From the NCBI GenBank assembly GCA_964016885.1, contig OZ024741.1:317440001-317504000 (forward strand): DNA of 64,000 nucleotides, in the 5' to 3' direction. How positions within the stretch are numbered: the first letter of the stretch is position 1; each line of letters opens with the position of its first letter. Shown in pieces: positions 703-60,249 of the stretch. Position numbers and translations under genes: made by a program. The notes below the pieces were generated by a model, which saw only the letters and a list, made by a program, of their open reading frames with translations, was not told the origin of the DNA and did not search any database. Source of the stretch: Eledone cirrhosa. Its lineage: Eukaryota.

Positions 703-2291
703 ACAGACAGATAGATAAATTTCTTTATTAACCACAAGGGTACAAAAGAAGGGGACAAATACAAATGGAGAGTTTACAATATGGTATATGAAAATAAAAC
801 TATTAATAAAATAACAAATAACAATTGATATCCCCAATAGGGGGAGGTGTTACACAGGGGTTGTACACACCCCGAAAAAATGTACAACCCTCATCTCCAG
901 GAGCACCAAGTGTGAGTACTCCCTTCCTCTCTTCCTCTTTTTCCTCAACCTACAGGCTTATATAGAGAGAAAGCCCAACCACTCGGGCCATCTTTGCCAC
1001 ATTCACCCACCTTTTATCAAATTTGCTGGGGTACAGCACCTCTCTCTCCATCCTTATTCTTCTTCCAAAATGATATTTGTAAAAACGAATCAGTTGCTCG
1101 CCGAAGAGAAAGGTGTCTGACCTCAGCCCTTTTAACCTCGTCCACCATATAACCTCTTTCACCATAGCCATAACACAGAGGAAAACCGCCTCTCCATCGT
1201 TTTTGAAGGAGGGTGGCGGTTTGATCATGACAATGGACTCGGTGGTCAACCGGATTGGTCCCACCCGCGACAATAGTCGTTCTACATAGCCCCACAGGTC
1301 GGTAACGCCCGGGCAGTGAACAAATGCGTGCGCGACGGTTTCCTTGTCGCGCACGCATCTCGGACAGATCTATTTCGAAGGGTCCCTACCCGGGCGCCCG
1401 TGTCTGTAGAGCTTGTCTCGAGCTGGTAGAGTTCCTCGGTAGCACTGCCAGGCCAGGGACTTTTGGAAGTTGTCTATTGGTCCCGGGTGGAAGGTCCTAC
1501 CGAACAGACTGGCCAATTCGTCCTCCTCTACGCCTAGAGTTTCTTCGAACGTGTCGTCGCACTTGCTGCGGACCAACCCTCAATAGAATGTCGAAGTGGA
1601 ATCTCCACTGATCGCCGGGTCCGTTTGCCAGAGGACTGTGCGCGCCTGAGCACATTCGATGTGCCAGTCGCCCATTTTCCTCGGTTTTTGCTTGACCCAG
1701 GACTGCAGCTCCGTCAGCAAGACGAGTCGTGGGAAGATTCGCCTCACGAACGGGGCCCACACCAGTTCTCTGGTGAGGAATACGTGGAGGTGCCGCAGCC
1801 TGAGCGCGTGTTTGCGCAGCGTCAGCCACGACATCCCCAGCCCTCCGTTTGAAGGGTGATGGCAGCAGATGGATCTTCTCACCAAAGGAGCCCGTTTCTT
1901 CCAAAGGAATTGGAAGAGTGCGCGCTCCATTTTTGGTGAGCGTTTTGGCTGGACAAGGTACAACGGTCAAGCGGTAGTAGATGACGGACGCTATAAAAGT
2001 GTTCGCCACCTCCGCTCGACCTTTCAAGGATAGTTTGCACTCGGTCCACTTCTGGGTGAGTGCAAACACCTTGGCCGTCACCTCGTTCCAGTTCTTCTCC
2101 ACCTGGAGGTCCGTACCAAACCAGACCTCGAGCAGCTTTACCGGTCCTTCCGTCCAGAGTCCGACGACGCCATCGGAAGGCATCGGTTTGCCTCTCCATG
2201 TTACGAGTTGCAAACCGACGGATTTGTCCCGGTTCAGCTTCGCTCCTGTGAACCTTTCGTATTCCTCCAGTAAGGTGCCGATCTCCCCGAT
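703..2291 (-). mobile_element. 5'-truncated Tx1/L1-group LINE, copy 3 (frameshifted ORF2 C-terminal half, 3' UTR, (CTAT)n tail)
   Basis: ORFs 1497-2366, 1580-1963, 1370-1576 and 950-1354 are successive frame fragments matching the ORF2 at 4150-7578. AATAAA precedes the tail. Confidence 0.92.
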
Positions 2292-2297
2292 TATATA

Positions 2298-3875
2298 GAG
2301 ATAGATAGATAGATAGATATATTTCTTTATTAGCCACAGGGGCACAAAAGAAGGGGACAAATACAAAGGGGGAAGTTTACATACAATAAAAACGTGTAAA
2401 ATGTTATCACAGATGGAATTTAAAAGTTAGTCGATTTTCCCCAATAGAGGGAGACAGTTTATATGGGTAACACAGACCCCCGAAAAAAATGTGCAACCCT
2501 CATCTCCAGGAGTACGAAGAGCTTGTACTCCTTTCCTCTCCTCCTCCTTTTCCTCAACCTACAGGCTGATATAGAGAGAAGGCCCATTCACTCGGGCCAT
2601 TCTCGCCACTTTCACCCACCTTTCATAAAACTTGCTGGGGTACAGCACCTCTCTCTCCATCCTGATTCTTCTTCCAAAGTGGTATTTGAAAAAAAGAATC
2701 AGTTGTTGGCCGGAGAGAAAGGTGTCTGACCTCAGCCCTTTCAACCTTGTCCACCATACAACCTCTTTCGCCATAGCTATCACACAAAGGAAAACCGCCT
2801 CTCCTTCGTTTTTGAAGGAGGGTGGCGGTTTGATCATGACAATGGACTCGGTGGTCAACTGGATTGGTCCCACCCGCGACAATAGTCGTTCCACATAGCC
2901 CCACAGGTCAGTGACGCCCGGGCAGTGTATGAATGCGTGCGCGACGGTTTCTTCGTCTCGCACGCACCTCGGACAGATCTTTTTTGCAGGGTCCCTGCCC
3001 GGGCGCCCATGTCTGTAGAGCTTGTCTCGAACTGGTAGAGCTCCTCGGTAGCACTGCCAGGCCAGGGACTTTTGGAAGTTGTCCATCGGTCCCGGGCGGA
3101 AGGTCCTACCGAACAGACTGGCCAGTTCATCTTCCTCCACGCCTAGAGTTTCACCGAGCGCGTCGTCGCACTTGCTGCGGACCAACCCTCTATAGAATGA
3201 CGAAGTGGAGTCTCCACTGATCGCCGGGTCCGCCTGCCAGAGGGCTGTGAGCGCCTGAGCACATTCGATGTGCCAGTCGCCCATTTTCCTCGGTCTCTGC
3301 TTGACCCAGGACTGCAGCTCGGTCAGCGAGACGAGTCGTGGGAAGGCTCGCCTCACGAACGGGGCCCACACCGGTTGTCCGGTGAGGAATACGTAGAGAT
3401 GCCGCAGCCTGAGCGCGTGTTTGCGCATCGTCAACCACGGCATCCCCAGCCCTCCGTTAGAAGGGTGTTGGCAGCAGATGGATCTTCTTACCAAAGGAGC
3501 CCGCCTCTTCCAAAGGAATCGGAAGAGGGCGCGCTCCATTTTGGCGAGCGTTTTGGCTGGACAAGGCACGACGGTCAAGCGGTAGTAGATGGCGGACGCT
3601 ATAAAAGTGTTCGCCACCTCCGCTCGACCTTTCAAGGATAGTTTGCACTCGGCCCACTTCTGGGTGAGTGCAAACACCTTGGCCGTCACTTCGTTCCAGT
3701 TCTTCTCCACCTGGAGGTCCGGACCAAACCAGACCCCGAGCAGCTTTACCGGTCCTTCCGTCCAGCGTCCGACGACGCCATCGGAAGGCATCGGTCTGCC
3801 TCTCCACGATCCGAGTTGCAAACCGATGGACTTGTCCCGGTTCAGCTTCGCTCCTGTGAGACTTTCGTATTCCTT

Positions 3876-3876
<1 letters not shown>
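2298..3876 (-). mobile_element. 5'-truncated Tx1/L1-group LINE, copy 2 (open ORF2 C-terminal 420 aa, 3' UTR, (CTAT)n tail)
   Basis: ORF 2559-3821 aligns by eye to the ORF2 C-terminus (GGLGMPW; CPRC..ETVAH..HC zinc finger). Confidence 0.93.
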
Positions 3877-3918
<42 letters not shown>

Positions 3919-4149
3919 ATTTCTATTTATTTGCCACGAGGGCACAAAAGAAGGGGACATTTACACAGTGGGGGAGTTTACATAAATCGAGTAAAGAAAA
4001 AAGGAATAACAATAATAATATAACAATAAAAAGTCCTCAAAAGGGAGGGGGCGTGTTGGGGATTGCACATACCCCCGAAAAGTGTGCAACTCTTTTCGCG
4101 GGGGAAACCCAGAGAGGAGGCGCTCCCCCTTTCCTCTTCACTTCTTCAC

Positions 4150-7100
4150 CTACAGAACAATGTAGAGAGAAGGCCCATTTACACGGGCCATTCTCGCTTC
4201 TTTCACCCACCTTTCATAAAACTGTCTGGGACCAAGCACTTCTCTCTCCATCCTGATTCTTCTTCCGAAGTGGTATCGGAAGAAGTAAACCAGGTGATGG
4301 CCGGAGAGAAAGTCACCCGACCTCAGACCTTTCAGGCGCGTCCACCACACAACCTCTTTCATCATGGCTATTACGCACAGAAAGACCGCCTCTGCTTCAT
4401 TTCTGAAGGGAGGAGGCGGCTTGATGTTCACCACAGACTCGGCGGTTAATCGAATCGGCGCCACACGCGACAGCAGTCGTTCGACGTAGCCCCACAGATC
4501 GGCAACGCCCGGGCAGTGTACCAGTGCATGCGCAACGGTTTCCTCGTCGCGCACGCATCTGGGACAGATCTTTTTCGCGGGATCCCTGCCCGGGCGCCCG
4601 TGTCTGTAGAGCTTTTCTCGAACGGGCAGAGCCCCCCGGTAACACTGCCAGGCTAGGGACCTCTGGAAGTTGTCCATGGGTCCCGGGCCGAAAGTTCTAC
4701 CGAACAGGCTGGCCAGTTCGTCCTCCTCCATGCCTAGCGACTCTCCAAGGGTGTCGTCGCCCCTGCTAGCCACCAACCCTCTATAGAATGTCGAGGTGGA
4801 TTCTCCACTGACAGTCGGGTCCGCTTGCCAGATAGCCGTGAGCGCCTGGGCACACTCAGTGTGCCAGTTGCCCAGTTTTCTCGGTCTTTGCTTCACCCAG
4901 GATTGCAGTTCGGTGAGCGAGACGAGCTGTGGGAAGGCTCGCCTCACAAACGGGGCCCACACCGGCTGACCGTTGAGGAATACCTGTAGATGCCGTAGCC
5001 TCAATGCGTGCCTACGCATCAACAGCCACGGCATACCCAGCCCTCCTTTCGAAGGGTGCTGGCAGCAGATGGATCTCCTCACCATGGGAGGCCGCTTCTT
5101 CCAGAGGAACTGGAAGAGCATGCGTTCCATGATGGTGAGCTTTTCCTTGGGGCAAGGCACGACGGTCAGGCGGTAGTAGATGACGGACGCTATGTAAGCG
5201 TTCGTCACCTCCGCCCGACCTTTCAGTGATAGTTTGCACTTGGCCCACTTCTGGGTCAGCGCAAACACCCTGCTCGTCACCTCGCCCCAATTCTTCTCCA
5301 CCTGGAGGTCCGGTCCGAACCAGACCCCGAGCAGCTTCACCGGGCCCTCCGTCCACCGCCCGACGACACCGTCTAACGGCATCGGTTTGCCCCTCCACGT
5401 TCCGAGTTGCAAACCGACTGACTTGTCCCGGTTCAGCTTAGCCCCCGTCAGCCTTTCGTATTCCTCCAGTAGGGTGGCGATCGCCCCGATTTCCGAGGCG
5501 TCCGCCACCATTACTGTTACGTCGTCGGCATAAGCCGAGACCGCTTTGTGCAATCCCGGTTCCAGGGGTATGCCCCGCAGCAACTCCAACTTCCGCAGCA
5601 GTGGCTCGAGAGTCAATACGTACAGAAGGGAGGAGAGGGGGCACCCCTGTCTGATGGATCGGGTGATTTGAAACGGCTCCGAGAGGTAGCCGTTTACTTT
5701 AATCCTAGAGTAGATGTTGCCACTGTGCATGGCAGAAATCCAGCCCCTGAAAACGGGTCCGAAGCCCGCCGCCGCTAGCACCGCATCCAGGTAACCATGG
5801 TCGACCCTATCGAACGCCTTAGATTGATCCAAGTTGATCAGGGCCCCACCAAAGCCGGGTTCGTAGCCAACCCTCTCTATGATGTATCGCATGAGGTGGA
5901 GGTTGTCGTGAATGGACCTGGACGGGATAGCGCATGTCTGCGCGTCTCCCACCAAACCACCCACCACAAGCGCCAACCTCTTCGCCAACACCTTGGCCAA
6001 AATCTGTAACTCTGCATTCAGCAGAGTTATGGGCCTAAAGTTACTTAAGTCGTCCCCCTTGCTCTCGTCCTTCCTCACTAGCGTGACCACGCCCTTGGTC
6101 ACAGAACAGGGAATTCTCCCGTTCTGTTGCCAGTTGCAATAGACAGCCTCGAGGAGTTCGGAGAACAAGACCGGCATAGCTAAATAAAGTTCGTATGGTA
6201 GACCATCGAGACCCGGGGATTTGCGTCTGCTGCATTGGCTGAGCGCTTCCCCGATTTCAGTGGCTGTGATTGGCCCTTCGCAGCACTCCGCTTCGCCGCT
6301 CGAAAGACGCGGTAGACCGTCGAGGTATGGACCGAAGTCCACATCCCCGTCCGGCCCCCCGCCACCTCCGAACAGTCGAGCAAAGTGCCTTTGAAAGGTC
6401 TCGCACATTCGCTCAGGTTCAAGGATCACCCGTCCATCCTGGTCTCGCAAAGACCGAATGGTGGATTTAATCCCACTCTTGGCTTCTGTCACGCGGGCCC
6501 AGCTAACAGCTTTGGTCCCCTCGTTTCCTAAAGCACGTATTTTACTTCGGACAACGCAGCCTTCGTGCTTCGCGTCAAAGAACTGGCTCAATGCCGTTCT
6601 CGTCGCTAACACTCTGGCTACGTCTCCGCTCCTAATCGCCTCTTCTAGTTTATCTGTTAACTCCCTTTCCCTCCTATTTCTATTCACCGCTAGTTCCTTA
6701 CTGTAACCTATCGAACTTACTCTAATCTCTCTCTTTAGAGATATCCACCACCTACTGTTGACGATCGCTCCCGTCAACCGCATCTTAACTAAGCTACTAA
6801 TCCGGTTTCTGTAATCTTTCTTTGTCGGTAAGGACAAGTTCATCTTCCAGTAACCGGGACCCTGTCTATGCGTTCTATCAAGGTTGACCACGCAGGTCAC
6901 TAATTTGTGATCTGAATAGCCAACCATGATCAGTTCTGGACAACTAAATACGTCCCTATCCTTACTCCTAACCAAAAACCTATCTAGGTACGATCTAGAT
7001 TGTCCACTGCGGTTTGCCCAGGTCCAGGTTGGCGCAGTTGGACAATCTAGTCGAAATCTATCGACCAGGTCGAATCGATCGAGTAACCCCTTGAGGCTGC

Positions 7101-7578
7101 TACACCCCCCTCTATCGGGACATGCCCCTGCATAGTCCCAACGCGCATCTAGGATTCCATTCCAGTCCCCCACTAAAAGCAGGGAACGCGACGTTCCTAG
7201 AAAAGTCTCCAGACGTTGGAAGAAGTCGGCTCTCTCCGCCCCGAAGGGAGCATAAAGACCGACCAGTCTGAAAGCCCCGCCTTCACCACCTCCGACGTCC
7301 AGCACCAGTAATCGACCCCCCGGGTCCGAGTGAACAATCTGTACGTCGAGAGTCAGACGTTTATCCAGCAGTAAGGCAACTCCCCCCCCGCCTCCGGGTT
7401 GACAGAGAGATGCGTGCATCTCAAAGTCATCGAAGGCGGGCGCCAGCTGTCTCACGCTGCTGATCCGACTCTCGCAAACAACCATCACATCTATACTTTG
7501 TGACCTGAGGTCACTTAGAAGCTTTGCTTGCTTCCAAGCTGAGCTCAGGCCACGCGCGTTCAAACAGCCAACTCTCAA
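4150..7578 (-). CDS. LINE ORF2: APE endonuclease, reverse transcriptase and C-terminal CCHC finger (no ATG at the start)
   Basis: Uninterrupted 1142 codons. APE motifs: LNARGL, GDWN, SYLDRF, SDH. RT motifs: [40 protein letters not shown]. Zinc finger: CPRC...H...HC. Confidence 0.95.
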   Translation of the reverse strand: MRVGCLNARGLSSAWKQAKLLSDLRSQSIDVMVVCESRISSVRQLAPAFDDFEMHASLCQPGGGGGVALLLDKRLTLDVQIVHSDPGGRLLVLDVGGGEGGAFRLVGLYAPFGAERADFFQRLETFLGTSRSLLLVGDWNGILDARWDYAGACPDRGGCSSLKGLLDRFDLVDRFRLDCPTAPTWTWANRSGQSRSYLDRFLVRSKDRDVFSCPELIMVGYSDHKLVTCVVNLDRTHRQGPGYWKMNLSLPTKKDYRNRISSLVKMRLTGAIVNSRWWISLKREIRVSSIGYSKELAVNRNRRERELTDKLEEAIRSGDVARVLATRTALSQFFDAKHEGCVVRSKIRALGNEGTKAVSWARVTEAKSGIKSTIRSLRDQDGRVILEPERMCETFQRHFARLFGGGGGPDGDVDFGPYLDGLPRLSSGEAECCEGPITATEIGEALSQCSRRKSPGLDGLPYELYLAMPVLFSELLEAVYCNWQQNGRIPCSVTKGVVTLVRKDESKGDDLSNFRPITLLNAELQILAKVLAKRLALVVGGLVGDAQTCAIPSRSIHDNLHLMRYIIERVGYEPGFGGALINLDQSKAFDRVDHGYLDAVLAAAGFGPVFRGWISAMHSGNIYSRIKVNGYLSEPFQITRSIRQGCPLSSLLYVLTLEPLLRKLELLRGIPLEPGLHKAVSAYADDVTVMVADASEIGAIATLLEEYERLTGAKLNRDKSVGLQLGTWRGKPMPLDGVVGRWTEGPVKLLGVWFGPDLQVEKNWGEVTSRVFALTQKWAKCKLSLKGRAEVTNAYIASVIYYRLTVVPCPKEKLTIMERMLFQFLWKKRPPMVRRSICCQHPSKGGLGMPWLLMRRHALRLRHLQVFLNGQPVWAPFVRRAFPQLVSLTELQSWVKQRPRKLGNWHTECAQALTAIWQADPTVSGESTSTFYRGLVASRGDDTLGESLGMEEDELASLFGRTFGPGPMDNFQRSLAWQCYRGALPVREKLYRHGRPGRDPAKKICPRCVRDEETVAHALVHCPGVADLWGYVERLLSRVAPIRLTAESVVNIKPPPPFRNEAEAVFLCVIAMMKEVVWWTRLKGLRSGDFLSGHHLVYFFRYHFGRRIRMEREVLGPRQFYERWVKEARMARVNGPSLYIVL

Positions 7579-7583
7579 TTGAT

Positions 7584-9419
7584 CTATTTTGGTGTTGAAA
7601 GTGAAGAAAGAAAAGCACTTACCTCTCCGGGTTGCGTAATTTCCATGGCATCAGGTGTGTTGGGTGGAGGGATGTTTTGTGGTGATGTGGGGGTACACGT
7701 GTGTGGTGTGGTTGGGGTATTTGGAGTTGTGTCAGGGAGAGGGGCGGTTATGGGGAAATCTTTCAAGAGGACGCGATTCAACGGTTTTAAACAGGGGGGG
7801 CTCACGTCCCGTCTAAATTGTTCTTTTAAGGAACGATAAAGGTCCAGAGGGACCTTTATCATTTTTAAATGGGTGAAGTTCTCTGTTGAGATAAAGTTTG
7901 GCCCTTCGGTCTGCACCATAGGGTTATTGTTTATTAATTTAACCAGTTTTTTGTTTTCTTTATTTATATATGTGTATTGCAACGTCTTTTTTTGTGATGC
8001 TGTCAATGTTTCGGAGAGGGGAGGCGCAGATTTATTTTTGTTTGTTGAGGGTGGGGTGTTTTTGATTGGAGTTGGTGTTTGTGTGTGGGTTATTTGTGGT
8101 GTGCTGGGTGTGTGTTTTCTTTTTTTTCTTTTAACTTGTCTGAAGGCTTCTCCTCCTTCTTCTTCAGAAGTTGGGGGAAACTCTTCAGCGCTAGGTGGGA
8201 GGGACGTGTTGTGTGGTTGTTTTTTTTTTGCGGGAGGGGTAGATTTGTTACTGTTTTTTTTATTATTTGTTTGGAATGGGTTTTGTGGTGGTGGTGGTGG
8301 TAATGTTTGTGTCGTGCTTGTGGTTGGTAATGGTGGTGGTGATGTTTGTGTTGTGGTTGGTGGTGGTGATTTTTGTGTCGTGCTTGTGTTTGGTGCTGGT
8401 GGTGGTGATGTTTGTGTTGTGTTTGTGGTTGGTGGTGTCTGTATTTTGTTTGCTGTGTGTGGTATTAGTGTATTTTTGGAGGTGGGTGGTGCTGGTGTAC
8501 TGTTTGTGGTGGGTGTGGGCAATAGTCCTTTTTGGGGGATACGTTTCGGGCAGTTAGCCTTAACGTGTCCCCTTTCCATGCATAAATAGCATGCTGGTCT
8601 TCTCCCCTCTACAATTATGTCTATTGGGGTAAGGTCATCCAGCCAGATGCGATCCGGGATTTGTGCTATTCTTTCGGGCCTCATTTGGACTAGTATGTCG
8701 AGGCCCATTCCCAGGAACGCATCTCCAGTTGCCTTCCCCATTGACAGCATAGTGTCTTCGCCCATATCAATGAAGCCAGCAATAGCCCACCAGAAGTCCA
8801 TTGTGGGCAGCATTGTTTTTACTTTTATTCTCTGTGTTCTTCTACCCATGTAGGAGGGATAGAAGCTATATGTTGTCGACGAGAGTGGGCTTAGGGAAAG
8901 CTGAACCGCCGTTTCTTTGTCTCTTGTTAGGACCGAAATGCTGCCATAGAGTCGGTCCTTTCGTATGAAGAGAATATTCTTCATATAGTCTTTTAGGACT
9001 AACTCTATTTCCATTTGGCTGGGCTGTGCTGGCTTTCTTGACTGGTTTAGTATAGTTCTGTATATAACTGTGTTTTCTGCTCTGGCTTTCTTGAATTCTG
9101 GGGGGGAGTTAATGGAAAACATTCCGTTCTCCCCCAAAACAATATGTTTCTTTGCTTCGGCCAGTTTTTCTCTGGCGGCAGTTAGGTCAATTGGTGTGTA
9201 TGTAATGGATTGCTTTGTTTTCTGGGCGAAAGTTGCCCTGTCGTTATTTGTATTATTTTCTGTTTGTTTGTTTTCTGTTTGCTCATTTTCCTTAACATTT
9301 GTTTTTTCATTTTGTTTGTTTGTTTCAATGTCTAATTTTGTTGTAATTATTTTTTGTTCTTCAGACTTGGGGGGCGTGGCAGAGCTAATGGCAGACATGT
9401 CTGCCATCTTTTCCGCCAT
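7584..9419 (-). CDS. LINE ORF1 (gag-like nucleic-acid-binding protein with CCHC zinc knuckle and Pro/Thr-rich tail)
   Basis: CYLCMERGHVKANC knuckle; lies directly upstream of ORF2; first ATG at 9419 (MAEKMADMSA). Confidence 0.88.
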   Translation of the reverse strand: MAEKMADMSAISSATPPKSEEQKIITTKLDIETNKQNEKTNVKENEQTENKQTENNTNNDRATFAQKTKQSITYTPIDLTAAREKLAEAKKHIVLGENGMFSINSPPEFKKARAENTVIYRTILNQSRKPAQPSQMEIELVLKDYMKNILFIRKDRLYGSISVLTRDKETAVQLSLSPLSSTTYSFYPSYMGRRTQRIKVKTMLPTMDFWWAIAGFIDMGEDTMLSMGKATGDAFLGMGLDILVQMRPERIAQIPDRIWLDDLTPIDIIVEGRRPACYLCMERGHVKANCPKRIPQKGLLPTPTTNSTPAPPTSKNTLIPHTANKIQTPPTTNTTQTSPPPAPNTSTTQKSPPPTTTQTSPPPLPTTSTTQTLPPPPPQNPFQTNNKKNSNKSTPPAKKKQPHNTSLPPSAEEFPPTSEEEGGEAFRQVKRKKRKHTPSTPQITHTQTPTPIKNTPPSTNKNKSAPPLSETLTASQKKTLQYTYINKENKKLVKLINNNPMVQTEGPNFISTENFTHLKMIKVPLDLYRSLKEQFRRDVSPPCLKPLNRVLLKDFPITAPLPDTTPNTPTTPHTCTPTSPQNIPPPNTPDAMEITQPGEVSAFLSSLSTPK

Positions 9420-9642
9420 GCTGCCAAGAAAGAAATTTTTCGGCAAAAATAGATATTTATTTTACCCCCTAAAAAGGGGGTAAATGCAAAAATGTTTCCC
9501 TAAATAACAGGGGTTAGTGTTCCAAATGTGTTGCACTAAAAAATTTATCCGGTACTTACAATAGTAAGGGTAAATCCCGATGGAATAGCGGAGCCGATGC
9601 GAAGCGTGTCTTACTCTATCAAGATAGATAGATAGATAGATA

Positions 9643-10485: not shown

Positions 10486-11093
10486 AACCCCTGCCAGGAA
10501 ATCATCGGCGGGCATCCTAACATCTGCAAGAGACTGGCAGCTATTGGTGGATCTTGAGCGTCAGCTGAACTTCCTTAGCCACATTGCGGTCACCACCCTG
10601 CGACCAGACATTGTCCTCGTGTCTGAGTCCACCAAACAAGTAGTGCTGCTGGAGTTGACTGTCCCATGGGAAGATCGCCTGGAAGAAGCCTTTGAGAGAA
10701 AGCTCTCCAAGTACGCGGTTCTGGTCAGTGACTGTCAGCGGGCTGGTTGGGGAGCGAGGTGTCTCCCAGTGGAGATTGGGTGCAGGGGTTTCGCAGCCCG
10801 TTCTCTGACCAGAGCCTTCAGCAGTTTGGGCATCGAGGGAGTGAGAAGGGGGAAGGCCATCCGCAGTACCACCGATGCGGCAGAGAGAGCCTCAAGATGG
10901 CTGTGGATCAAAAGAGGAGAGCCATGGTGTCATGGTAGCTAGCTGGCCATCTGGACACAAGCTGGGGTCTGATCAGCCCCAGCTGGGTCACCTGGAGAAG
11001 GGTGTATGATGTTGAAAGACCCGAAACACCCGATGATACCAGGCACATCACTGAAGATGTGTCCAGATGCATGTCATAGATGTATGCACACAA
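10486..11093 (+). mobile_element. 3' fragment of HERO-type RLE LINE (endonuclease domain and 3' UTR), directly upstream of the full copy
   Basis: ORF 10544-10942 has RPDIVL..ELTVPWE..RKLSKY (PD-(D/E)xK). Near-identical to 14085-14696. Confidence 0.9.
10948..11069 (+). ncRNA. Structured 3'-UTR RNA with scrambled hammerhead core (second copy at 14547-14668)
   Basis: Six complementary segments plus CUGAAGA, GAAA and GUA motifs at the helix junctions; see findings. Confidence 0.55.
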
Positions 11094-14000
11094 CGAACAC
11101 TCTGAGTTATCAGTGACAGCCAGGAAAGACTGGAAGACAACCATGAAGAGAGTGGTGACTACTGAAGAGTCAGTGACAGCCCGGAGAGACGGCAACCGGG
11201 GCAGAACGCACTGGCAACCCAATCTGTGTCCTCTGAGAGGAGGACTCCCAGAATAAGCTACGATGAATGTAATGAAGAAATACCTCCAGGGGTGCCCAAG
11301 GGGAGGGGGGTGAATGAGCACCGCAGTCGGACGGACAACATACTCAAGCAATTGACAACAGACTATGAGCAAGAAGTGTACATGCGGTAAAGTCTGCAAG
11401 AACATCCACGGCCTAAAGATACACCGAGCGAGGATGAAGTACCCGTTGGGAGCAGAAACATCACATCGCACAGGTGTTCAACCTGGTGAGACGCAGAAGG
11501 AGCCAGGCCCGGAATCACTCCATAGTGCCAGGAACCTCCAAGTGGTGAAAACTAATCCCCTGAGCATCAAATCTGACAGGAGGCGGATCAAATGGCCAGC
11601 AGCTAGCATGACCTCACTGTGGAAGCAGTTCGATGATGATGTCAACCAAATTCTGGAGGCAACGGTAAAGGGGAGGCTGACAGGAGGCTACAAGCTATGA
11701 CAACAATCATTGTGAGTTTCGCAGTTGGACGATTCAGCGAGGAGGAGAAGAAAAGCTCCGGAACAACTTACTCAAAGAATCAAAGAGCTGTTAGGATCCT
11801 TAACATCAGGCAGGATATGAAGGCACTGAAGTCCCAATACAAGAAGACCGGAGATGAGGAACGCATTGGCCTGACCCAGCTAATGTGCAGCCTACGGAAA
11901 AAGATCAGGGTTCTCCGCCGGGCTGAATGGCACCGAAGGCGGCGCTGTGAGAGGGCGCGCAAGCGTGCTACCTTTATCTCCAACCCCTTCAAGTTCACTA
12001 AAGATTTGTTGGGGAAGAAGCGCAGTGGTAAACTTGCCTCCTCGCAGGAAGACATAAACCGGCATCTGAAGAAGATGTACAGCGACCCCGCAAGAGAACA
12101 GGGGTTGTGAGAATGTAACATCCTCATAGACCCCCCCCCCCCCCCCTTGAATGAGAGCTGCAGCTAAAGGAAGTCGGGGGAGGGGTTGTCCGCAGAGCAA
12201 GAGCAAGCTCTGCTCCAAGACCAAGTGGCACTTCATACAAAGTGTATAAGAACTGTCCCAAACTTCTGCAGCGTCTGTGGAAAATCCTGCGAGTCTTCTG
12301 GAGAAGAGGGAGGATCCCAGAACAATGGAGAGTAGCTGAGGGGGTGTGGATCCCGAAGGAGGAAAACTCCACCCAGATAGACCGATTCCACATCATCTCC
12401 CTGCTGTGTGTGGAGGCAAAGATCTTCTTCAGCATGGTTTCCAAACGGCTGTGTGCCTACCTGGGTCAGAACTCCTATATCGATACATCTGTACAGAAGG
12501 GTGGCATTTCGGGAATACCAGGCTGTCTGGAGCATACCGGTGTGGTAACAGAGCTGATTCGAGAGGCAAGAGATAACAGGTGTATCTATCTGTGCTGTGG
12601 CTTGACCAGGCAAATGCATTCGGCTCCATTCCACACAAGCTAGTACAGCTCACGTTGACAAAAGATCATGTACCAAGCAGGTGCAGAGATCTTATCGCTG
12701 ATTACTACACCAATTTCAGGATGAGGGTCTCTTCGGGAGCAATAACATCAAGCTGGCACAAGGTGGAAATCGGCATCATCACGGGGTGCACTATCTCTGT
12801 GACACTATTCTCCCTAGCCATGAACATGATTACCAAGTCTGCTGAGCCAGCGTGCAGAGGGCCTCTATCGAAATCCGGACAAAGGCAACCACCCATGTTC
12901 ATGGATGACCTCACAGTCATGACAGAATCAGCCCCAGGCTGCCAGTGGATTCTGCAGAGACTCGAAAAGGTGATGGAGTGGGCTCGGATGCGTTTCAAAC
13001 CAACCAAATCAAGATCTATGGTGCTGAGGAAAGGGAAGGTGGAGGACAAGTTCCGGTTTAACATCTCAGGAACAGCCATTCCAACAATCACAGAGAAGCC
13101 AGTCAAGAGCTTGGGCAAGGTTTTCGACAACTCATCGAGAAACACTACATCTATCCAGTTGGCCTGCACTGAGTTGGATGGCTGACTGAAATCCGTGAAC
13201 AAGTCAGGCCTACCTGGGAAGTTCAAAGCCTGGGTCTACCAACACGGCATTCTTCCCAGGATCCTGTGACCCCTCCTTGTCTATGCAGTCCCCATCTCAA
13301 CAGTGGACACCTTAGAGAGGAGGGTCAGCAGCCACCTCTGGGGATGGCTTGGATTGCCAAGGAGTCTGAGCAGTATCGCGTTCTACGGTAACAACACCAA
13401 GCTGCAATTGCCCTTCAAATCATTGGAGGAGGAGTTCAAGGTGGCATGAGCCAGAGAAGTGGTCCAGTACAGGGACTCTTGTGATCCTAAGGTGGCTAAA
13501 GCAGGGATCCAAGTGAGGACTGGCAGGAAGTGGAGGGCAGAAGAAGCAGTTCAAGAGGCAGAGGCTGCGTCAAAGATGACTTGTGGGAGTGGTCACACGA
13601 GGCAGAGCTGTGCTAGGCTCCTTTCCGACTCCCCAAACGAACACCAGCGAGAAGGAAGGGCGCCGCCTTGTTCAGGGGGAGGTGAGAGTTGCAGTGGAGG
13701 AAATGAGAACTTGCAAGGTAGTAGGAATGAAACAAGATGGGAGAATGCGGTTGAGAGGAAAGTGACCTGGGCTGAGCAGTGGAAAGCCGAGCCGAGCCGC
13801 ATTAAATTCCTCATCCAGGCAGTGTACGGTGTGCTTCCAAGCCCATCAAACCTGCACGCATGGGGTATAGCAGAGACACCAGCATGTGCGTTGTACTTCA
13901 AGCGAGGAACCCTGGAACACATCCTCAGCTGCTGCACAGGGGCACTTGGAGAAGGACGGTACCGCTTGAGGCATGACCAAGCCCTTAAGACCATCGCGGA

Positions 14001-14690
14001 AGCCATCAGCGCAGGACTTGTGTGGGCGATGCGGTTCCGACCCTCCAAGAAAACCATCGCCTTTGTCAGAGCTCGAGAGCAGCCAACCCCTGCCAGGAAA
14101 TCATCGGCGGGCATCCTAACATCTGCAAGAGACTGGCAGCTATTGGTGGAACTTGAGCGTCAGCTGAACTTCCCTAGCCACATTGCGGTCACCACCCTGC
14201 GACCAGACATTGTCCTCGTGTCTGAGTCCACCAAACAAGTAGTGCTGCTGGAGTTTTCTGTCCCGTGGGAAGATCGCCTGGAAGAAGCCATTGAGAGAAA
14301 GCTCTCCAAGTATGCGGTTCTGGTCAGTGACTGTCAGCGGGCTGGTTGGAGAGCGAGGTGTCTGCCAGTGGAGGTTGGATGCAGGGGTTTCACACCCCAT
14401 TCCCCGACCAGAGCCTTCAGCAGATTAGGCATCGAGGGAGTGAGAAGGGGGAAGGCCATCCGCAGTACCACCGATGCGGCAGAAAGGGCCTCAAGATGGC
14501 TGTGGATCAAAAGAGGAGAGCCATGGTGTCATGGTAGCTAACTGGCCATCTGGACACAAGCTGGGGTCTGATCAGCCCCAGCAGGGTCACCTGGAGAAGG
14601 GTGTATGATCTGGAAAGACCCGAAACACCCGATGATACCAGGCACATCACTGAAGATGTGTCCAGATGCATCAGTCATAGATGTATACAC

Positions 14691-14696
<6 letters not shown>
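11094..14696 (+). mobile_element. Near full-length, decayed single-ORF RLE LINE, HERO-clade-like
   Basis: N-terminal zinc finger CTCGKVCKNIHGLKIH at 11365. RT fragments QKGG..GCLEH, WLDQANAFGS, GIITGCTISV and FMDD. CCHC remnant and RLE domain. Several frameshifts and stops. Clade assigned from remembered motifs. Confidence 0.85.
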
Positions 14697-36921: not shown

Positions 36922-37504
36922 GTGTGTATGTGTGTGTGTACCTGTGTGCGTAATTTTCAGTAGGTGATGATTCATCTGTCGTCAACGCTTTTGTATGCAT
37001 ACGTGTGTGTGCACGCCTGTATGTTTGTCTGTTTGTGTGCATGTACATATACATGCCTGTGTGTGTGTGTTTATTCATGCATGTATGTCTGTGTGAGTTT
37101 GGGCGTGTGCGATTATTTGTGTGCGTGCATGTTTGCGTGCATGAGTGCGTGCATGTGTGCGTGCATGTGTGCATATGTGTTTATTTCCGTGGTGGCCGTG
37201 GTGAGGTGGAAAGAGGGGGGTGTAAGGGAAGAATGCAAGGTGAGGGGGTGAGAAAGAATGAGAAATGTGGGGTTGAGGTTGTTTATGGGGAGAAGGAATG
37301 CAAGTGGTGGGAGGGGAAAAATGGGGCAGTGAGGGTCAGGTAAAGTTCAACAGTTCCTTACTATCCCTCCCCTCCCCCAAACACTTGCAATCAAAAGAAA
37401 TGCAACGTCATTAAACATAGTGCCCCCCCCCCGCCCCCCACACACACACCCTTCAATAACTGCAAACAATATTCCTCACCGCAGATCACAACTAACCCTC
37501 ACCA

Positions 37505-40097
37505 TCCACCCTCACCATCACAACCACCACCCTCACCATCACAACCTCCACCCTCACCATCACAACCACCACCCTCACCATCACAACCACCACCCTCACC
37601 ATCACAACCTCCACCCTCACCATCACAACCACCACCCTCAACATCACAACCTTCACCCTCACCATCACAACCACCACCTTCACCATCACAACCACCACCC
37701 TCACCATCACAACCATCACCCTCACCATCACAACCTCCACCCTCACCATCACAACCACCACCCTCACCATCACAACCACCACCCTCACCATCACAACCAC
37801 CACCCTCACCATCACAACCACCACCCTCACCATCACAACCTCCACCCTCACCATCACAACCACCACCCTCACCATCACAACCACCACCCTCACCATCACA
37901 ACCACCGCCCTCACCATCACAACCTCCACCCTCACCATCACAACCACCACCCTCAACATCACAACCTTCACCCTCACCATCACAACCACCACCTTCACCA
38001 TCACAACCACCACCCTCACCATCACAACCATCACCCTCACCATCACAACCTCCACCCTCACCATCACAACCACCACCCTCAACATCACAACCTTCACCCT
38101 CACCATCACAACCACCACCTTCACCATCACAACCACCACCCTCACCATCACAACCATCACCCTCACCATCACAACCTCCACCCTCACCATCACAACCACC
38201 ACCCTCACCATCACAACCACCACCCTCACCATCACAACCTCCACCCTCACCATCACAACCACCACCCTCAACATCACAACCACCACCCTCACCATCACAA
38301 CCTCCACCCTCACCATCACAACCTCCACCCTCACCATCACAACCTCCACCCTCACCATCACAACCACCACCCTCAACATCACAACCACCACCCTCACCAT
38401 CACAACCTCCACCCTCACCATCACAACCTCCACCCTCACCATCACAACCACCACCCTCAACATCACAACCACCACCCTCACCATCACAACCACCACCCTC
38501 ACCATCACAACCACCACCCTCACCATCACAACCTTCACCCTCACCATCACAACCTTCACCCTCACCATCACAACCACCACCCTCACCATCACAACCTCCA
38601 CCCTCACCATCACAACCTTCACCCTCACCATCACAACCTCCACCCTCACCATCACAACCACCACCCTCAACATCACAACCTTCACCCTCACCATCACAAC
38701 CACCACCCTCACCATCACAACCACCACCCTCACCATCACAACCTCCACCCTCACCATCACAACCACCACCCTCACCATCACAACCACCACCCTCACCATC
38801 ACAACCTCCACCCTCACCATCACAACCTTCACCCTCACCATCACAACCACCACCCTCACCATCACAACCACCACCCTCACCATCACAACCACCACCCTCA
38901 CCATCACAACCTTCACCCTCACCATCACAACCACCACCCTCACCATCACAACCTCCACCCTCACCATCACAACCTTCACCCTCACCATCACAACCTCCAC
39001 CCTCACCATCACAACCACCACCCTCACCATCACAACCTCCACCCTCACCATCACAACCACCACCCTCACCATCACAACCTTCACCCTCACCATCACAACC
39101 ACCACCCTCACCATCACAACCTCCACCCTCACCATCACAACCTCCACCCTCACCATCACAACCTCCACCCTCACCATCACAACCACCACCCTCACCATCA
39201 CAACCACCACCCTCACCATCACAACCACCACCCTCACCATCACAACCTCCACCCTCACCATCACAACCACCACCCTCACCATCACAACCACCACCCTCAC
39301 CATCACAACCACCACCCTCACCATCACAACCTCCACCCTCACCATCACAACCTCCACCCTCACCATCACAACCACCACCCTCACCATCACAACCTCCACC
39401 CTCACCATCACAACCTCCACCCTCACCATCACAACCACCACCCTCACCATCACAACCTCCACCCTCACCATCACAACCACCACCCTCAACATCACAACCT
39501 TCACCCTCACCATCCAACCACCACCTTCACCATCACAACCACCACCCTCACCATCACAACCACCACCCTCACCATCACAACCACCACCTTCACCATCACA
39601 ACCACCACCCTCACCATCACAACCATCACCCTCACCATCACAACCACCACCCTCACCATCACAACCTCCACCCTCACCATCACAACCACCACCCTCAACA
39701 TCACAACCTTCACCCTCACCATCCAACCACCACCTTCACTATCACAACCACCACCCTCACCATCACAACCTTCACCCTCACCATCACAACCACCACCCTC
39801 ACCATCACAACCTCCACCCTCACCATCACAACCACCACCCTCAACATCACAACCTTCACCCTCACCATCCAACCACCACCTTCACCATCACAACCACCAC
39901 CTTCACTATCACAACCACCACCCTCACCATCACAACCTTCACCCTCACCATCACAACCACCACCCTCACCATCACAACCTCCACCCTCACCATCACAACC
40001 ACCACCCTCACCATCACAACCTCCACCCTCACCATCACCACCTTCACCCTCACCATCACAACCATCACCCTCACCATCACAACCTCCACCCTCACCA
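37505..40097. repeat. 21-bp minisatellite CACCCTCACCATCACAACC(A/T)C, about 120 units
   Basis: Directly visible; source of the HHPHHHN / GEGGGCD pseudo-ORFs. Confidence 0.95.
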
Positions 40098-40259
40098 TAC
40101 ATAACTAATCTCACCACCACGACAACGCTTGACAGTCACCTTTACAACCTCCACCACCACCATTACAACCATCACCATCACCATCACCATCACCATCAAT
40201 ATCACAACTAACCTCACCCCACCATCACCACCACAATCCTTGACAGTCACCATCAGAAC

Positions 40260-41676
40260 CTCCACCATCACCATCATCACTACAACCTCCACCATCATCA
40301 CTACAACCTCCACCATCACCATTACTACCACCTCCACCATCATCACCATTACCACCACCTCCACCATCATCACCATTACCACCACCGCCACCATCATCAC
40401 CATTACCACCACCGCCACCATCACCATCATCACTACAACCTCCATCATCACCATTACCACCACCTCCACCATCATCACCATTACCACCACCGCCACCATC
40501 ACCATCATCACTACAACCTCCATCATCACCATTACCACCACCACCACCATCATCACCATTACCACCACCGCCACCATCACCATCATCACTACAACCTCCA
40601 TCATCACCATTACCACCACCACCACCATCATCACCATTACCACCACCGCCATCACCACCATTACCACCACCACCATCACCATTACCACCACCGCCACGAT
40701 CACCATTACCACCACCTCCACCATCATCACCATTACCACCACTGCCACCATCACCATTACCACCACCTCCACCATCATCACCATTACCACCACCGCCACC
40801 ATCACCATCATCACTACAACCTCCATCATCACCATTACCACCACCACCATCATCATCACCATTACCACCACCACCACCATCATCACCATTACCACCACCG
40901 CCATCACCACCATTACCACCACCACCATCACCATTACCACCACCACCACCATCACCATTACCACCACCACCACCATCATCACCATTACCACCACCGCCAC
41001 CATCACCATCATCACTACAACCTCCATCATCACCATTACCACCACCACCATCATCATCACCATTACCACCACCACCACCATCATCACCATTACCACCACC
41101 GCCATCACCACCATTACCACCACCACCATCACCATTACCACCACCGCCACCATCACCATTACCACCACCACCGCCATCATCACCATTACCACCACCACCA
41201 CCATCATCACCATTACCACCACCTCCACCATCACCATCATCACTACAACCTCCATCATCACCATTACCACCACCACCATCATCATCACCATTACCACCAC
41301 CATCATCACCATTACCACCACCGCCATCACCACCATTACCACCACCACCATCACCATTACCACCACCGCCACCATCACCATTACCACCACCACCACCATC
41401 ATCACCATTACCACCACCGCCATCACCACCATTACCACCACCACCACCATCATCACCATTACCACCACCACCACCATCATCACCATTACCACCACCACCA
41501 CCATCATCACCATTACCACCACCTCCACCATCATCACCATTACCACCACCACCACCATCATCACCATTACCACCACCACCGCCATCATCACCATTACCAC
41601 CACCACCACCATCATCACCATTACCACCACCACCATCACCATTACCACCACCACCACCATCATCACCATTACCACC
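40260..41676. repeat. CAC/CAT/ATT compound minisatellite (~21-27-bp units)
   Basis: Directly visible. Confidence 0.9.
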
Positions 41677-41716
41677 ACACAAAATACTACCAATTAATTA
41701 GTCAATCAAAAAGAAA

Positions 41717-50881: not shown

Positions 50882-53819
50882 AGAAACGACATTTGAAACG
50901 CTTAATGTTTTGTTATATATTTCAGCTGTCACATTGCTATCATATAACACACATCTAAAACCACGCAATCAAGATACAAACAGAAAGCCTGAACCAGCGT
51001 GGATGCGAAATTTAAAAACCAAAATTTTGTCCCTGAGACGAAGTATCTCACACATCGCAGTCGTTATGAAATGCAACATAGAGAGCAACTTCACACGACA
51101 CCAGGAAGACCTAAAGAAAAAGTTAGAGAGATGATTTGGAGATACAAAATTTAAAACTTTGAACTCCAAATTACACCAGTTGAAACAACAACTCACAGCT
51201 ACAACAGAAAGACTAAAATATAAGTCAACAGCACATAAACGACAAGTGCTAAATAGATTGTTTGCCGGAGATCCTAAATCAGTTTATCGCAGCTTCGGTG
51301 GCAAAAGCTCAATCCCTGTAAACGACACCCCTTCAAAAGAACAGGTTGAGAGCTACTGGAGATCTGTATGGGAAACGGATGACGGATTCAACAGACAAGC
51401 TAATTGGCTAAAAGAACTGGAACAGGACTACTGCCAACATGTCCAGACAAAACAATATGACATAGATGGGTCAATACTGGAAACAGCTCTACAGAAAATG
51501 TCGAATAGGAAATCGCCAGGCCCAGACCTCATTACAGTATACTGGTTGAAGAATTTCACTTTCTATCGGCAAGATCTCATACGACTGTTTACAGAAACCA
51601 TTAAGGGCACACAAGAACTGCCCAGATGGTTATCAACTGCCACTACTCTCCTCATTCCCCAAAATAGCCAAACCACCCTTGCTAAAAATTACCACCCAAT
51701 TGCCTGCCAAAACATCATGTATAAATTATATACTGGGTGCCTTAACCTGTTCTTACAGGATCACTGTGCTACCAACAACATCATAACACCTGAGCAAGCT
51801 GGTCGAAAGAGAGAGGTGTGGGGTTGCATAGATCACCTACTAACTAACAAAATGATTCAGGAAAATACAACAAAGAATCGCAGAAACATGACTGTCGTGT
51901 GTCTGGACTATCAAAAAGCATTTGATAGTGTACCTCATGGGTGGATTATTAAGGCTTTACAGTTAGCTAAAGTCCCACAACCATTGGTAGCTGCTGTTGA
52001 ACGCCTGACCAAGAACTGGTACACCAATTTGATCCTTAGAGGTGGGAAAGAGCAGATTAAGACTGATAAGATACATTACCAGAAGGGCATCTTTCAGGGT
52101 GATAGCTTGTCAGTGCTACTCTTTGTTCTCTCACTGAATCCACTATCTTACCTACTCAGGAAACAAGGTGGACAAAGAAGTGGGCCCAGAAGTATCTCCC
52201 ATCTTTTCTTTGTTGATGACCTGAAGTTGTATGGGCCAAATATCAATGACATCAAGAAATAATTGGACCTCATTACACAATTTTCAACCGACATCAAAAT
52301 GAAATTTGGTGAGTCCAAGTGTGTATATTTGGCAGTAAAACGTGGAAGAGCTGTGCCCTCCTCTAGAAATCTAGAGATGAACGGCCTGACAATACAATCT
52401 CTGCAGTCAGGTGACAACTACAGATATCTTGGACAGGATGAGAATGTCAGATATGATGGACCCATAAATAAGGAGAGAACCAGAACTGAATACCTCAGAA
52501 GAGTAAAGAAAATATGGTCATCAGAACTGTCAGCGTACAACAAATACATTGCCCACAATACTTATGCTGTGCCAATTCTAACGCCAACATTTGGCCTACT
52601 GAACTGGTCATTGCAAGAACTAAGTGAGATGGATGTTAGAACTCGAAAACTTCTCAGTGTTACTGGGAACTTTAACATCAATGGTGATGTGGATAGGCTA
52701 TACTTCTCACGCAAGGAAGGTGGCCGGGGTCTAAAATCAATATTAACAACATATGAGACCCGGATAGTAACACTGAAGCAACACCTTCAACAGAGGAAAA
52801 AGGTTGGCAACCATCTTGCCCAGGTTTATGAGCATGAAAAAAGAAATATCATTAGAATAGCGACTGATCTGGAGGAGAGATATGGAATAAAGCCTGATAT
52901 AAGTCTCTCACCCAGAGAAATCGGAAGATCCTATTCAATGTTCAAACAAGATAAAAAAATTGACCAATTTACAGAAAAAGTTGTGCATGGATACTTGAGG
53001 TGTAAAACACAGACCATAGAGGGGATAAACCACTCAAAAAGCCTGGCATGGAGTTCCGACAAGTTTATGACATCACACCTTGAGGGATATCTCTATGCAA
53101 TACAGGAACAACAACTCCCTACCAAATATCTGCTGCACAAAAGGGAAGGGCCAGCAGCTGACAATAAATGTAGGCTATGTAAAACAAAGATCGAGGATGT
53201 AAGCCACATTGTTGCCAGCTGCGAAAGAATGTCATCTCGCTACTACCTCCCCATGAGACACGATGGGATAGCTAGAACCATCTGGAACGCACTTCGGAAA
53301 ACAAAATTAACAACAAACGAGGAAGAATATATTGAGACAGATGGCACTAAGGAATACTGGTGGAACCTGAAAATAAAAACTGCCACCAAATTAAAGCACA
53401 ACCGGCCTGATATTCTTGTTTGGGACCACACATTGAAAACGTGTTCTGTTGTGGAGATCAGCTGCCCACTTGATGTAAACGATGTCAAAAAAATACAGAA
53501 GGGGGACATCTACGGACCATTGATGAGGAGTTTACAAATCCAGTATCCAAGATACACCTTTAGCTTCATACCCATCATTATTGGAGCTACGGGTTATATA
53601 CCAACCCGCTTGGACCAAAGTATGACTGAACTTGGATTTGCGGACAAAGAGCGCAGCTCCCTAATTCATAGTCTACAAATGGCTGCGATAGCTTGCACCT
53701 TCAAAATTTGCAAAACATTCTTGCGATTCAAGGGATGACAATTTCTTTTCTTTTCAACCTTGCCACCAGGAAGGTGGCCGGTCAAATAAATATACTCGAA
53801 ATTAAGAGAAAGAGATAAC
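50882..53819 (+). mobile_element. 5'-truncated R4/Dong-like RLE LINE, family B (one reading frame, two in-frame stops)
   Basis: ORFs at 50910, 51159 and 52263 share a frame. Motifs: KSPGPD, LDYQKAFDSVPH, GIFQGDSLS, FVDDLKLY, CRLC..H..ASC, RPDI..VEISCP. Confidence 0.92.
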
Positions 53820-58608: not shown

Positions 58609-59168
58609 ATAAAATATTAAAAAAATAATGAATAAAACAATGAAACAGTTCCTTATATTAAACAAAAAAAGTTCATTATTTAACGATCGTTTCTAGGATA
58701 TATATGTGTTAGAATTGGCATGCATATTCAACAGATCTATGTACAAAATTATACAAAATTATACAAACTATCAAAATTAAATATACATACCAACACATAT
58801 ATATGCCGTCTTCAGAAATAATTATTTCTGAAGACGGCATATATATGTGTTGGTATGTATATTTAATTTTGATAGTTTGTATAATTTTGTATAATTTTGT
58901 ACATAGATCTGTTGAATATGCATGCCAATTCTAACACATATATATCCTAGAAACGATCGTTAAATAATGAACTTTTTTTGTTTAATATAAGGAACTGTTT
59001 CATTGTTTTATTCATTATTTTTTTTATATTTTATCTTGACTCTGTATTCCGTTTATCTTTCACCGAAAGTGATATTTCATTGCATCTCTTCTTTCCATGA
59101 TATCCGGATTACATTGAGTTCTTCATACGGATTGGACACTACCGTAAACTCTTGGTAGATTTATCTAC
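58609..59168 (+). mobile_element. Penelope-type pLTR with a 213-bp perfect fold-back (palindrome 58609-59034)
   Basis: Loopless centre GAAATAA|TTATTTC at 58821/58822; hammerhead in each arm; ~130-bp unpaired tail ending TCTAC(AT)n. Confidence 0.7.
58821..58968 (+). ncRNA. Type-I hammerhead with very long stem II and palindromic stem III
   Basis: AUUAUUU-CUGAAGA-[..AUAUAUAUGUGUUGG..~85 nt..CUAACACAUAUAUAU..]-GAAAC-GAUC-GUU-AAAUAAU. Confidence 0.65.
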
Positions 59169-59179
59169 ATATATGCATA

Positions 59180-59211
<32 letters not shown>

Positions 59212-60001
59212 CATATACATACACATACATATATATACATATATATATATATATACACATACATATATATATATATACATACATATATATACATATATAT
59301 ATATACATATATATACACATAGATATATACATATATATACATATATATATATATACATATATATACATATATATATACATATATATACATATATATGTAT
59401 ATATATATATATACATATACATATACATACACATATATATACATATATATATACATATATATATACATATATATATACATATACATATATATATGTATAT
59501 ATATACATACATACATATATATACATATACATATACATACATATATATATACATATATATATACATACATAGATACATATATATATATATATACATACAT
59601 AGATACATATATATATATACATATATATACATATATACATATATATATACATATACATATATATACATATATATATACATATATATACATGTATATGCAT
59701 ATATATACATGTATATGCATATATATATATGTATATGCATATATATATATATATATACATACATATATATATATACATACATATATATATATACATATAT
59801 ACATACATATATATATACACAAATACATACATATATATATATACATATATATATACATATATATATACATATATATATACATATATATATATACATATAT
59901 ATATACATACATATATACATATATATACATATATATATACATATATATACATATATATACATATATATATACATATACATATGTATATATATATATGTAT
60001 G

Positions 60002-60035
<34 letters not shown>

Positions 60036-60090
60036 TATACATATATATATGTATATATATATATATACATATATATATACATATATATAC

Positions 60091-60121
<31 letters not shown>

Positions 60122-60195
60122 TATATATACATATATATACATATATATATACATATATATACATATATATATATATATATGTATATATATGTATG

Positions 60196-60249
<54 letters not shown>
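59169..60249. repeat. ~1.1-kb (TA)n/(CATATA)n microsatellite
   Basis: Directly visible. Confidence 0.95.

Follow-up and report, generated by a model that had tools for sequence, protein, structure and literature searches.

A putative split hammerhead in the 3' UTRs of HERO-type LINEs and its possible place in a circular-RNA life cycle

The 3' untranslated region (UTR) of a LINE in Eledone cirrhosa raises the question of whether a hammerhead can be built from strands in a non-circular order, with its core opened between A9 and G10.1 by two additional helices, and of what such a structure would do for a retrotransposon. The initial annotation of the locus had proposed a hammerhead core of this kind in a HERO-type LINE 3' UTR, and the analysis described below supports that description.

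The element and the layout of its 3' UTR motif

By likeness to Takifugu, Tetraodon, Danio, and Branchiostoma proteins, the element appears to be a HERO-type LINE. It is related to proteins of fish and lancelets; over the C-terminal part, identity is 51% to Takifugu BAC82598 and 55% to the Tetraodon cluster AAN12398/BAC82599, and over an RT stretch, it reaches 64% for the latter. We take BAC82598 to be HEROFr, AAN12398 to be Zebulon, and BAC82599 to be HEROTn; the HERO papers drawn on here name elements from Takifugu, Tetraodon, and Danio but give none of these accessions. In the window (the whole 64,000-nt stretch of DNA that was analysed), a 5'-truncated 3' end of the element (10488..11094, plus strand), made up of the end of the endonuclease, a stop codon at 10940-42, and the 3' UTR, is fused without a spacer to a complete but frameshifted and decayed unit (11095..14695, plus strand) that encodes RT, a CCHC finger, and a restriction-like endonuclease. 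The RT matches Pfam RVT_1, and the RPD and E..VPW motifs of the endonuclease are invariant in an alignment of that region from 22 proteins. The CCHC pattern occurs in 116 of 120 related proteins, and no C2H2 pattern was found in the first 250 residues of any of the 120, some of which are partial proteins. In the passages of the HERO clade papers drawn on here, the members HEROFr, HEROTn, and HERODr (PMC3636483, PMC2790886, and PMC9004415) likewise have a single ORF with RT, CCHC finger, and restriction-like endonuclease and no N-terminal finger, the feature of no zinc finger upstream of RT coming from PMC2790886; these passages mention no ribozyme or 3' RNA structure.

The hammerhead-like motif begins 5 nt past the stop codon of the endonuclease domain and occupies 10948-11069 of the plus strand. 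Each helix and core motif read there in the initial annotation was present in its place, no nucleotide was shared by two helices, and the region folds with a z score of -3.36 against 200 shuffles. The 5' strand of helix P1 (10948..10959) forms 12 bp with its 3' strand (11058..11069), which lies immediately 3' of A9, and clamps the opened A9/G10.1 step. Hairpin P2 (10960..10984, pairing 10960-67 with 10977-84) is the fourth arm of the junction, and its loop carries the palindromic hexamer UGAUCA (10970-10975), a candidate kissing loop. The 5' strand of stem II (10985..10989, with G10.1 at 10985) pairs with 11018-11022, and helix P4, formed by CCUGG (10991..10995) and CCAGG (11039..11043), links the distal ends of stems II and I. 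Block S (11000..11012) consists of the stem III strand GGGUGU (11000-05), A17 (11006), and the stem I strand UGAUGU (11007-12), with the predicted cut 3' of A17, the H17 position, at 11006/11007. Block G (11018..11031) holds the 3' strand of stem II, G12-A13-A14-A15.1 (GAAA, 11023-26), and a stem III strand (11026-31), and the first half of block C (11045..11057) holds the stem I strand ACAUCA (11045-50) followed by C3 to A9 as CUGAAGA (11051-57). A tail (11070..11094, plus strand) leads to the fixed end of the element, where reverse transcription would start, at the head-to-tail junction 11094/11095.

The complete unit ends in a second motif copy (14547..14668, plus strand) with an intact core. 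This copy had been described as keeping the core with one stem I mismatch, which is correct as far as it goes; it differs from the first at three positions, namely, the stem I mismatch (the equivalent of 11011), one linker base, and a mismatch that closes P2 at the junction (the equivalent of 10984), the last of which had been overlooked. The initial annotation had also placed 1-nt linkers at the A9/G10.1 junction. The linkers there are in fact 0 nt long in 49 of 54 nonredundant copies and 1 nt long in 5, so that P1, P2, and stem II abut the core, and the 1-nt linkers of the window motif sit beside P4. Across copies, H17 is separated from G12 by 12 to 19 nt and G12 from C3 by 22 to 29 nt. Rfam gave no match in the window at gathering score and, around the motif at E values of up to 10, chance matches only.

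Distribution, conservation, and covariation

Loci were fetched by protein likeness alone, from the aligned endonuclease region of the 22 proteins, giving a set of 80 that comprised 79 metagenome loci (best 80 of 357, 42 to 83% identity) and one locus from prokaryote assemblies (L122). The full motif was found within 400 nt of the ORF end in 63 of the 80. Ten loci have less than 200 nt of 3' sequence, and two of these (L073 and L087) carry the motif elsewhere on the contig. Of the remaining seven, L076 carries it further along, at +386, and five (L055, L058, L107, L108, and L117) are visibly decayed or deleted copies in which no motif was parsed. No motif was detectable in the seventh, L115, despite its tandem junction and 5' array. 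This locus has a structured-looking stretch (L115:1127-1630, near 1320-1410) with no Rfam match, which may hold another ribozyme; a search of its 3' region at E values of up to 10 gave chance matches only. With the window copy, 64 copies were parsed, of which 56 have an intact core, and removal of near-copies left the 54 nonredundant copies used below. The prokaryote assemblies yielded four loci: L122 with the full motif, L121 and L123, which are too short, and L124, a weak match, the last three being excluded. The HERO-like pieces on short contigs of these assemblies are probably eukaryotic or host contamination. Viral contigs contained no protein relative, none of 120 core-word matches in the 3 of 64 parts scanned showed the architecture (best score, 23), and no motif was found in phage records.

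The core is highly conserved in the 54 copies. U4, G5, A9, A13, and A14 are present in 100%, A6, A15.1, C15.2, and G16.2 in 98%, U16.1 in 96%, and C3, G8, G12, and G10.1 in 94%. Within G12-A13-A14-A15.1, G12 is kept in 51 copies and A13 and A14 in all 54, while the A15.1-U16.1 pair is found as U-A in 51/54 and C15.2-G16.2 as G-C in 52/54. The fixed core positions took 0 to 3 changes each on the protein tree. For a functional core, the initial annotation had expected variation to be confined to N7 and H17, and it is indeed concentrated there: N7 takes all four letters (A8/U31/G6/C9), with 19 changes on the tree, and H17 is A, C, or U (14, 20, and 20 copies) and never G over 23 changes. A G at H17 carried a penalty in the motif parser, but the MAFFT alignment, made from sequence alone, has no G in that column either. 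All four Watson-Crick forms occur at the 1.1-2.1 pair, and the 10.1-11.1 pair is G-C in 44 and G-U in 7 of 54 copies. Three G12-to-A changes sit in a CpG and look like decay. The C3-G8 pair is C-G in 60 of the 64 parsed copies, U-A in 2, U-G in 1, and C-U in 1, a decayed copy; by locus, U3-A8 is found in L073, L082, and L103, with a single origin, and U3-G8 in L076 and L081. Because C3 and G8 form a Watson-Crick pair in the active hammerhead fold, these changes follow the expected compensatory path, with the swap to U3-A8 as a single compensatory event only.

Compensatory changes, the other sign expected of a functional structure, were found in all six helices. When the window structure was imposed on this sequence-only alignment of the 54 copies, 85% of cells paired versus 35 to 42% with slid partners, 38 of 42 pairs showed two-sided changes, and none of 500 shuffles reached the covariation score. 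Cells were paired at 90% in stem I, 97% in stem II, and 92% in stem III. P4 had at least 4 bp in 53/54 copies when the best helix was searched for, and in the MAFFT alignment, 83% of its cells paired, with two-sided changes in four of five pairs. Stem II is found as GGGUC/GACCC, GACCC/GGGUC, GGCGC/GCGCC, and GAUGA/UCAUC. Under a tree-aware null (our own G-test with the null simulated along the protein tree, not R-scape; a quick tree and FastTree were used, from only 135 columns), 12 column pairs were significant at an E value of <0.05, and all 12 lie inside the structure (3 in stem II, 3 in stem I, 2 in stem III, 2 in P1, 1 in P2, and 1 in P4). In a parser-anchored alignment, which is biased to the structure and lacks P4, the count was 23 of 34. 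RNAalifold recovered P1, P2, and stem II unaided.

A chance resemblance or an artefact of the descriptor has to be weighed here, as the parser picked registers by pairing and its pair counts are inflated by that choice. The pairing score (maximum, 29) was 23 to 29 for 45 of the 54 copies versus 12 to 22 for 180 shuffled 5' halves, and it was 12 to 23 for 120 chance occurrences of both core words, correctly spaced, in viral contigs. Together with the protein-only choice of loci, the sequence-only alignment, the slid partners, the shuffles, and the tree-aware null, these viral matches separate the signal from the background. Chance is thereby refuted for the structure, and as an explanation of the motif, we consider it extremely unlikely. 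The motif is real, clade-wide, and strongly selected.

The loop of P2 has a palindrome of at least six bases in 39 of 54 copies versus 13.7% in shuffles. The hexamers are UGAUCA (28 copies), UGGCCA (6), GACGUC (2), and AGUACU, UCAUGA, and UGUACA (1 each), with UGGCCA requiring five changes on the tree. In loops of about 9 nt, the hexamer most often stands with 2 nt before and 1 nt after it (16/39). The palindrome is missing in 15/54 copies, including a group with a tetraloop hairpin. Because the hexamer changes in sequence while self-complementarity stays, RNA-RNA kissing fits better than a protein site, and the palindromic loops suggest kissing dimers. Retroviral dimer initiation hairpins such as the HIV-1 DIS similarly have loops of about 9 nt that contain a self-complementary hexamer, a likeness that serves as an analogy only. 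A stop codon lies within P2 in 22 of 64 copies, and UGA doubles as the stop in some lineages; this use may add to the conservation of UGAUCA but not to that of the other hexamers. Related proteins read into the motif in one frame in 18 of 120 and in another frame in 23, and the constraint therefore acts on nucleotides. In the 18 (P0032, P0067, P0086, P0091, and 14 more), judged from the peptide, the ORF continues through P1, P2, and P4 and stops at or close to the S block, and the predicted cut would fall beside the stop codon.

Relation to known hammerheads

Hammerheads of types I, II, and III have a circular strand order around a three-way junction, and the HERO motif, with the order S-G-C, falls outside them. 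The initial annotation had regarded circular permutations as the only ones known. The scrambled order itself stands, but that premise does not: in the portions consulted of Eckert, Friedrich, Weinberg, and Weinberg 2023 (PMC10085705), the hammerhead is treated as blocks C, G, and S, no block being assumed to be interruptible, and S-G-C is the order of their type SGC (HRIMA-1 and variants). As described there, type SGC shares with the HERO motif this order, a short linker between stems I and II, a helix joining the other sides of these stems, a full core, and several pseudoknots. Its interaction helix joins stems I and II, and its ribozymes self-cleave during transcription, at 0.007 to 0.13 per minute. 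In the HERO motif, P4 takes the part of that helix. In contrast to the HERO motif, however, block C of type SGC is contiguous, whereas here one strand of stem II precedes block S, with P1 and P2 placed between A9 and G10.1. By the same account, type SGC comes from metatranscriptome contigs rather than genomes of known organisms and is about 80 nt long, whereas the HERO motif is found in animal retrotransposons and is about 120 nt long.

A plain type SGC hammerhead with a contiguous stem II was ruled out, as contiguous pairing is not conserved: directly after A9 (offsets 0 to 2), none of 51 copies formed five of five pairs, the maximum being four and most having two or three. The upstream strand formed all five in 45/54 copies. 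A conformational switch, which the initial annotation had entertained, is not indicated either; all six helices can form together, none of the conserved helices found excludes another, and the contiguous alternative to stem II is not conserved. Nor was there support for its suggestion that strain would restrict the motif to acting in trans, given the correspondence of P4 to the SGC interaction helix and how often RNAs adopt a perfect four-way junction. A dimer may nonetheless be of importance by way of the palindromic P2 loop, which the initial annotation had not mentioned. In the simplest geometry, P1 and P2 would stack on each other, with the strands crossing at A9 and G10.1, as a zero-linker four-way junction. 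The natural hairpin ribozyme likewise has a perfect four-helix junction beside its catalytic core, again as an analogy only.

Published hammerheads tolerate only 1 to 2 nt at A9/G10.1 according to the passages at hand of PMC10085705, and a single extra nucleotide is natural there in Penelope and viroid hammerheads according to those of PMC4209133, which makes this a tolerant site. We infer that the HERO motif works like a hammerhead, outside types I to III and outside type SGC as defined. The new features are that block C is split at A9/G10.1 and that the motif resides in a HERO-type LINE; noncircular permutations were already known. In the literature searched, we found no hammerhead in HERO elements and no helix insertion at A9/G10.1.

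Insertions and possible function

The genome of the species (3.0 Gb) gave 84 candidates and 40 scored matches, mostly of a young family (82 to 98%), with older families at 76 to 80%. Of six copies that reach the 5' end of the unit, four extend across one shared junction into the 3' end that precedes them, by 113, 130, 607, and 898 nt, and all four pass the predicted cut at -88. The remaining two start at +4 and, beside an inversion, at +10. In the metagenome set, the first 24 nt of L082 likewise come from its own 3' end. The start of the unit is marked by a conserved array of four short hairpins (11111..11192, plus strand), each after (U)GAC, with GAAAGA/GAAUAG/GAGAGA-like loops. The array has no Rfam match and may act in cap-independent translation, in protein binding, or as an internal promoter; it was also seen, with varying stems, in L059, L066, L078, L092, and 22 more loci. 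The motif lies just upstream of it in 23 of 26 metagenome loci, or 13 of 16 without the ten loci used for the profile, counts that may overstate tandems because short-read contigs can collapse repeats. Insertions retain an intact cut site and end about 88 nt downstream of it, and their 5' ends do not pile up at the cut, where none of the 40 scored copies starts (two start 4 nt to either side). Because insertions keep the site and 5' truncations show no pile-up there, a cut linear RNA is not the template. Template jumps are known for the R2 RT, and Zebulon of Tetraodon forms tandem arrays. Uncut multimers or such jumps account for the tandems just as well as a circle does, and the cut would then serve translation or control.

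Our main reading, to which we give a probability of roughly 0.55, is that the split S-G-C hammerhead cuts head-to-tail transcripts and that the unit lengths are religated to circles for reverse transcription. The RNA would fold as a single molecule in which the P1/P2 stack lies across that of stems II and III as a four-way junction, while P4 joins stems I and II. Self-cleavage after the NUH triplet (11006 in the window) would cut read-through transcripts to unit length, and four helices, P1, stem II, P4, and stem III, would keep the cut products paired (28 bp in the window). Where a transcript carries two motifs, pairing between the 3' half of one and the 5' half of the following one could allow ligation into a circle, with the palindromic P2 loops bringing the two motifs together by kissing. 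From the fixed end, about 88 nt past the cut, the RT would begin copying and roll round the circle, giving more-than-unit insertions that would regenerate the tandem arrangement for the next round. A circle suits what the insertions demand of a template because the site is kept by rejoining and the 5' end continues into the 3' end, and the wiring suits a circle because the four helices would hold the cut ends together. The pattern of conservation makes it very probable that the motif is catalytic; given catalysis, ligation between two motifs with kissing P2 loops is somewhat better supported than not. The fullest statement, of a seventh natural hammerhead topology with a kissing-loop four-way junction that is HERO-wide and drives a self-cut, self-ligated, circular-RNA rolling-circle life cycle, is tentative, at slightly short of even odds.

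Other roles for the motif were weighed against this model. An active hammerhead might instead make the 5' end of the mRNA, the cut in the upstream unit leaving about 105 nt before the 5' array on an uncapped RNA for cap-free translation, while uncut multimers would be copied and no circle would be required. In 11 of 17 loci, 100 to 112 nt separate the cut from the array, which agrees with this, and the absence of insertion 5' ends at the cut fits uncut templates. In the passages drawn on, HDV-like ribozymes of R2 and L1Tc are described as doing likewise from the 5' UTR (PMC6765202), and for RNA viruses, cap-independent translation is reported to be induced by nothing more than self-cleavage (PMC13725137). 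However, the four helices holding the products together and the palindromic loop would be left unexplained, and the motif at the unit's own 3' end would cut too, which, for the 18 of 120 fish-type proteins with a frame that stays open across the 5' half as far as the S block, would place the cut at or near the stop codon. We regard this alternative as unlikely.

A noncleaving docking structure for the element's protein, hammerhead-derived or hammerhead-like and comparable to the folds of the R2 3' UTR, would account for the location of the motif just before the priming end, where LINE proteins bind RNA, and for a site that is uncut in every insertion; the A9/G10.1 step is also interrupted as in no hammerhead tested in the portions seen of PMC10085705. 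Yet the conserved letters are exactly the hammerhead catalytic set and the free ones exactly N7 and 1.1/2.1, H17 avoids G over its 23 changes, and C3-G8 covaries as in the active fold. Docking is compatible with cleaving, and as a replacement for it, we find it decidedly unlikely. Self-cleaving motifs in 3' UTRs can lower expression, and the cut might limit the element by parting the ORF from the priming end, so that only protein-protected or dimerised RNAs are copied. A cut at 11006 would separate the coding RNA from the last 88 nt, and one insertion in the genome of the species (L125) is little more than those 88 nt. This would leave the more-than-unit insertions without a reason, however, and a cut that did nothing but harm would be unlikely to persist among proteins that share only about 42% identity; limitation as the function is very unlikely.

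The cut-ligate-roll model that we favour has also been proposed for Penelope elements, according to the parts consulted of PMC4209133. In the passages used of that paper, PMC6765202, and bioRxiv 10.64898/2026.07.22.740005, the hammerheads of Penelope pLTRs and retrozymes are type I, often minimal, with a weak stem III; they dimerise through loop 3, and their host is a GIY-YIG element. The HERO motif differs in its full stems, noncircular order, two-helix insertion at 9/10.1, and R2-group LINE host. The HDV-like ribozymes of R2, L1Tc, RTE, and Baggins LINEs, as portrayed in the portions seen of PMC6765202, are likewise LINE-borne, free the RNA from a cotranscript, and may aid translation and protein binding. 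In contrast, they belong to another class and cut at or near the 5' end from the 5' UTR, whereas the HERO motif lies in the 3' UTR with its site internal to the inserted copy. If our reading is true, it breaks the stated rule of uninterruptible hammerhead blocks, with its six possible orders; it places a noncircularly wired hammerhead, missed by the Rfam hammerhead models, in animal genomes; and it offers a testable cause for head-to-tail, more-than-unit HERO-type copies. A9/G10.1 would then be a natural site for grafting whole helices onto a hammerhead. HERO-type elements belong to the R2 group, which is at present a subject of engineering for gene insertion.

In the young family of the E. 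cirrhosa genome, core and flanks mutate at an equal pace (13/444 versus 108/3173), which is expected of dead copies, yet gives no support for function. One old copy (L034; G000:C3:196960300-196960560, minus strand) has two tandem motif cores with differing stem I pairs, and in L086 and L088, the S/G stretch is duplicated. Other LINEs in the window, none of which carries the motif, comprise an APE-RT element with an upstream ORF and a further partial copy, and two more RT elements, the LINE regions being 1500-9461 (minus strand), 51135-53735, and 59323-62649. A TA run lies near the 3' end in 14 of 30 copies from the same genome (L001-L030), and several 5' ends adjoin (TA)n; a preference of the element for TA microsatellites is likely. 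The window also contains long arrays of 9- to 15-nt units, some of them inverted, at 1-360, 26100-30100, 37300-41700, and 59100-60300.
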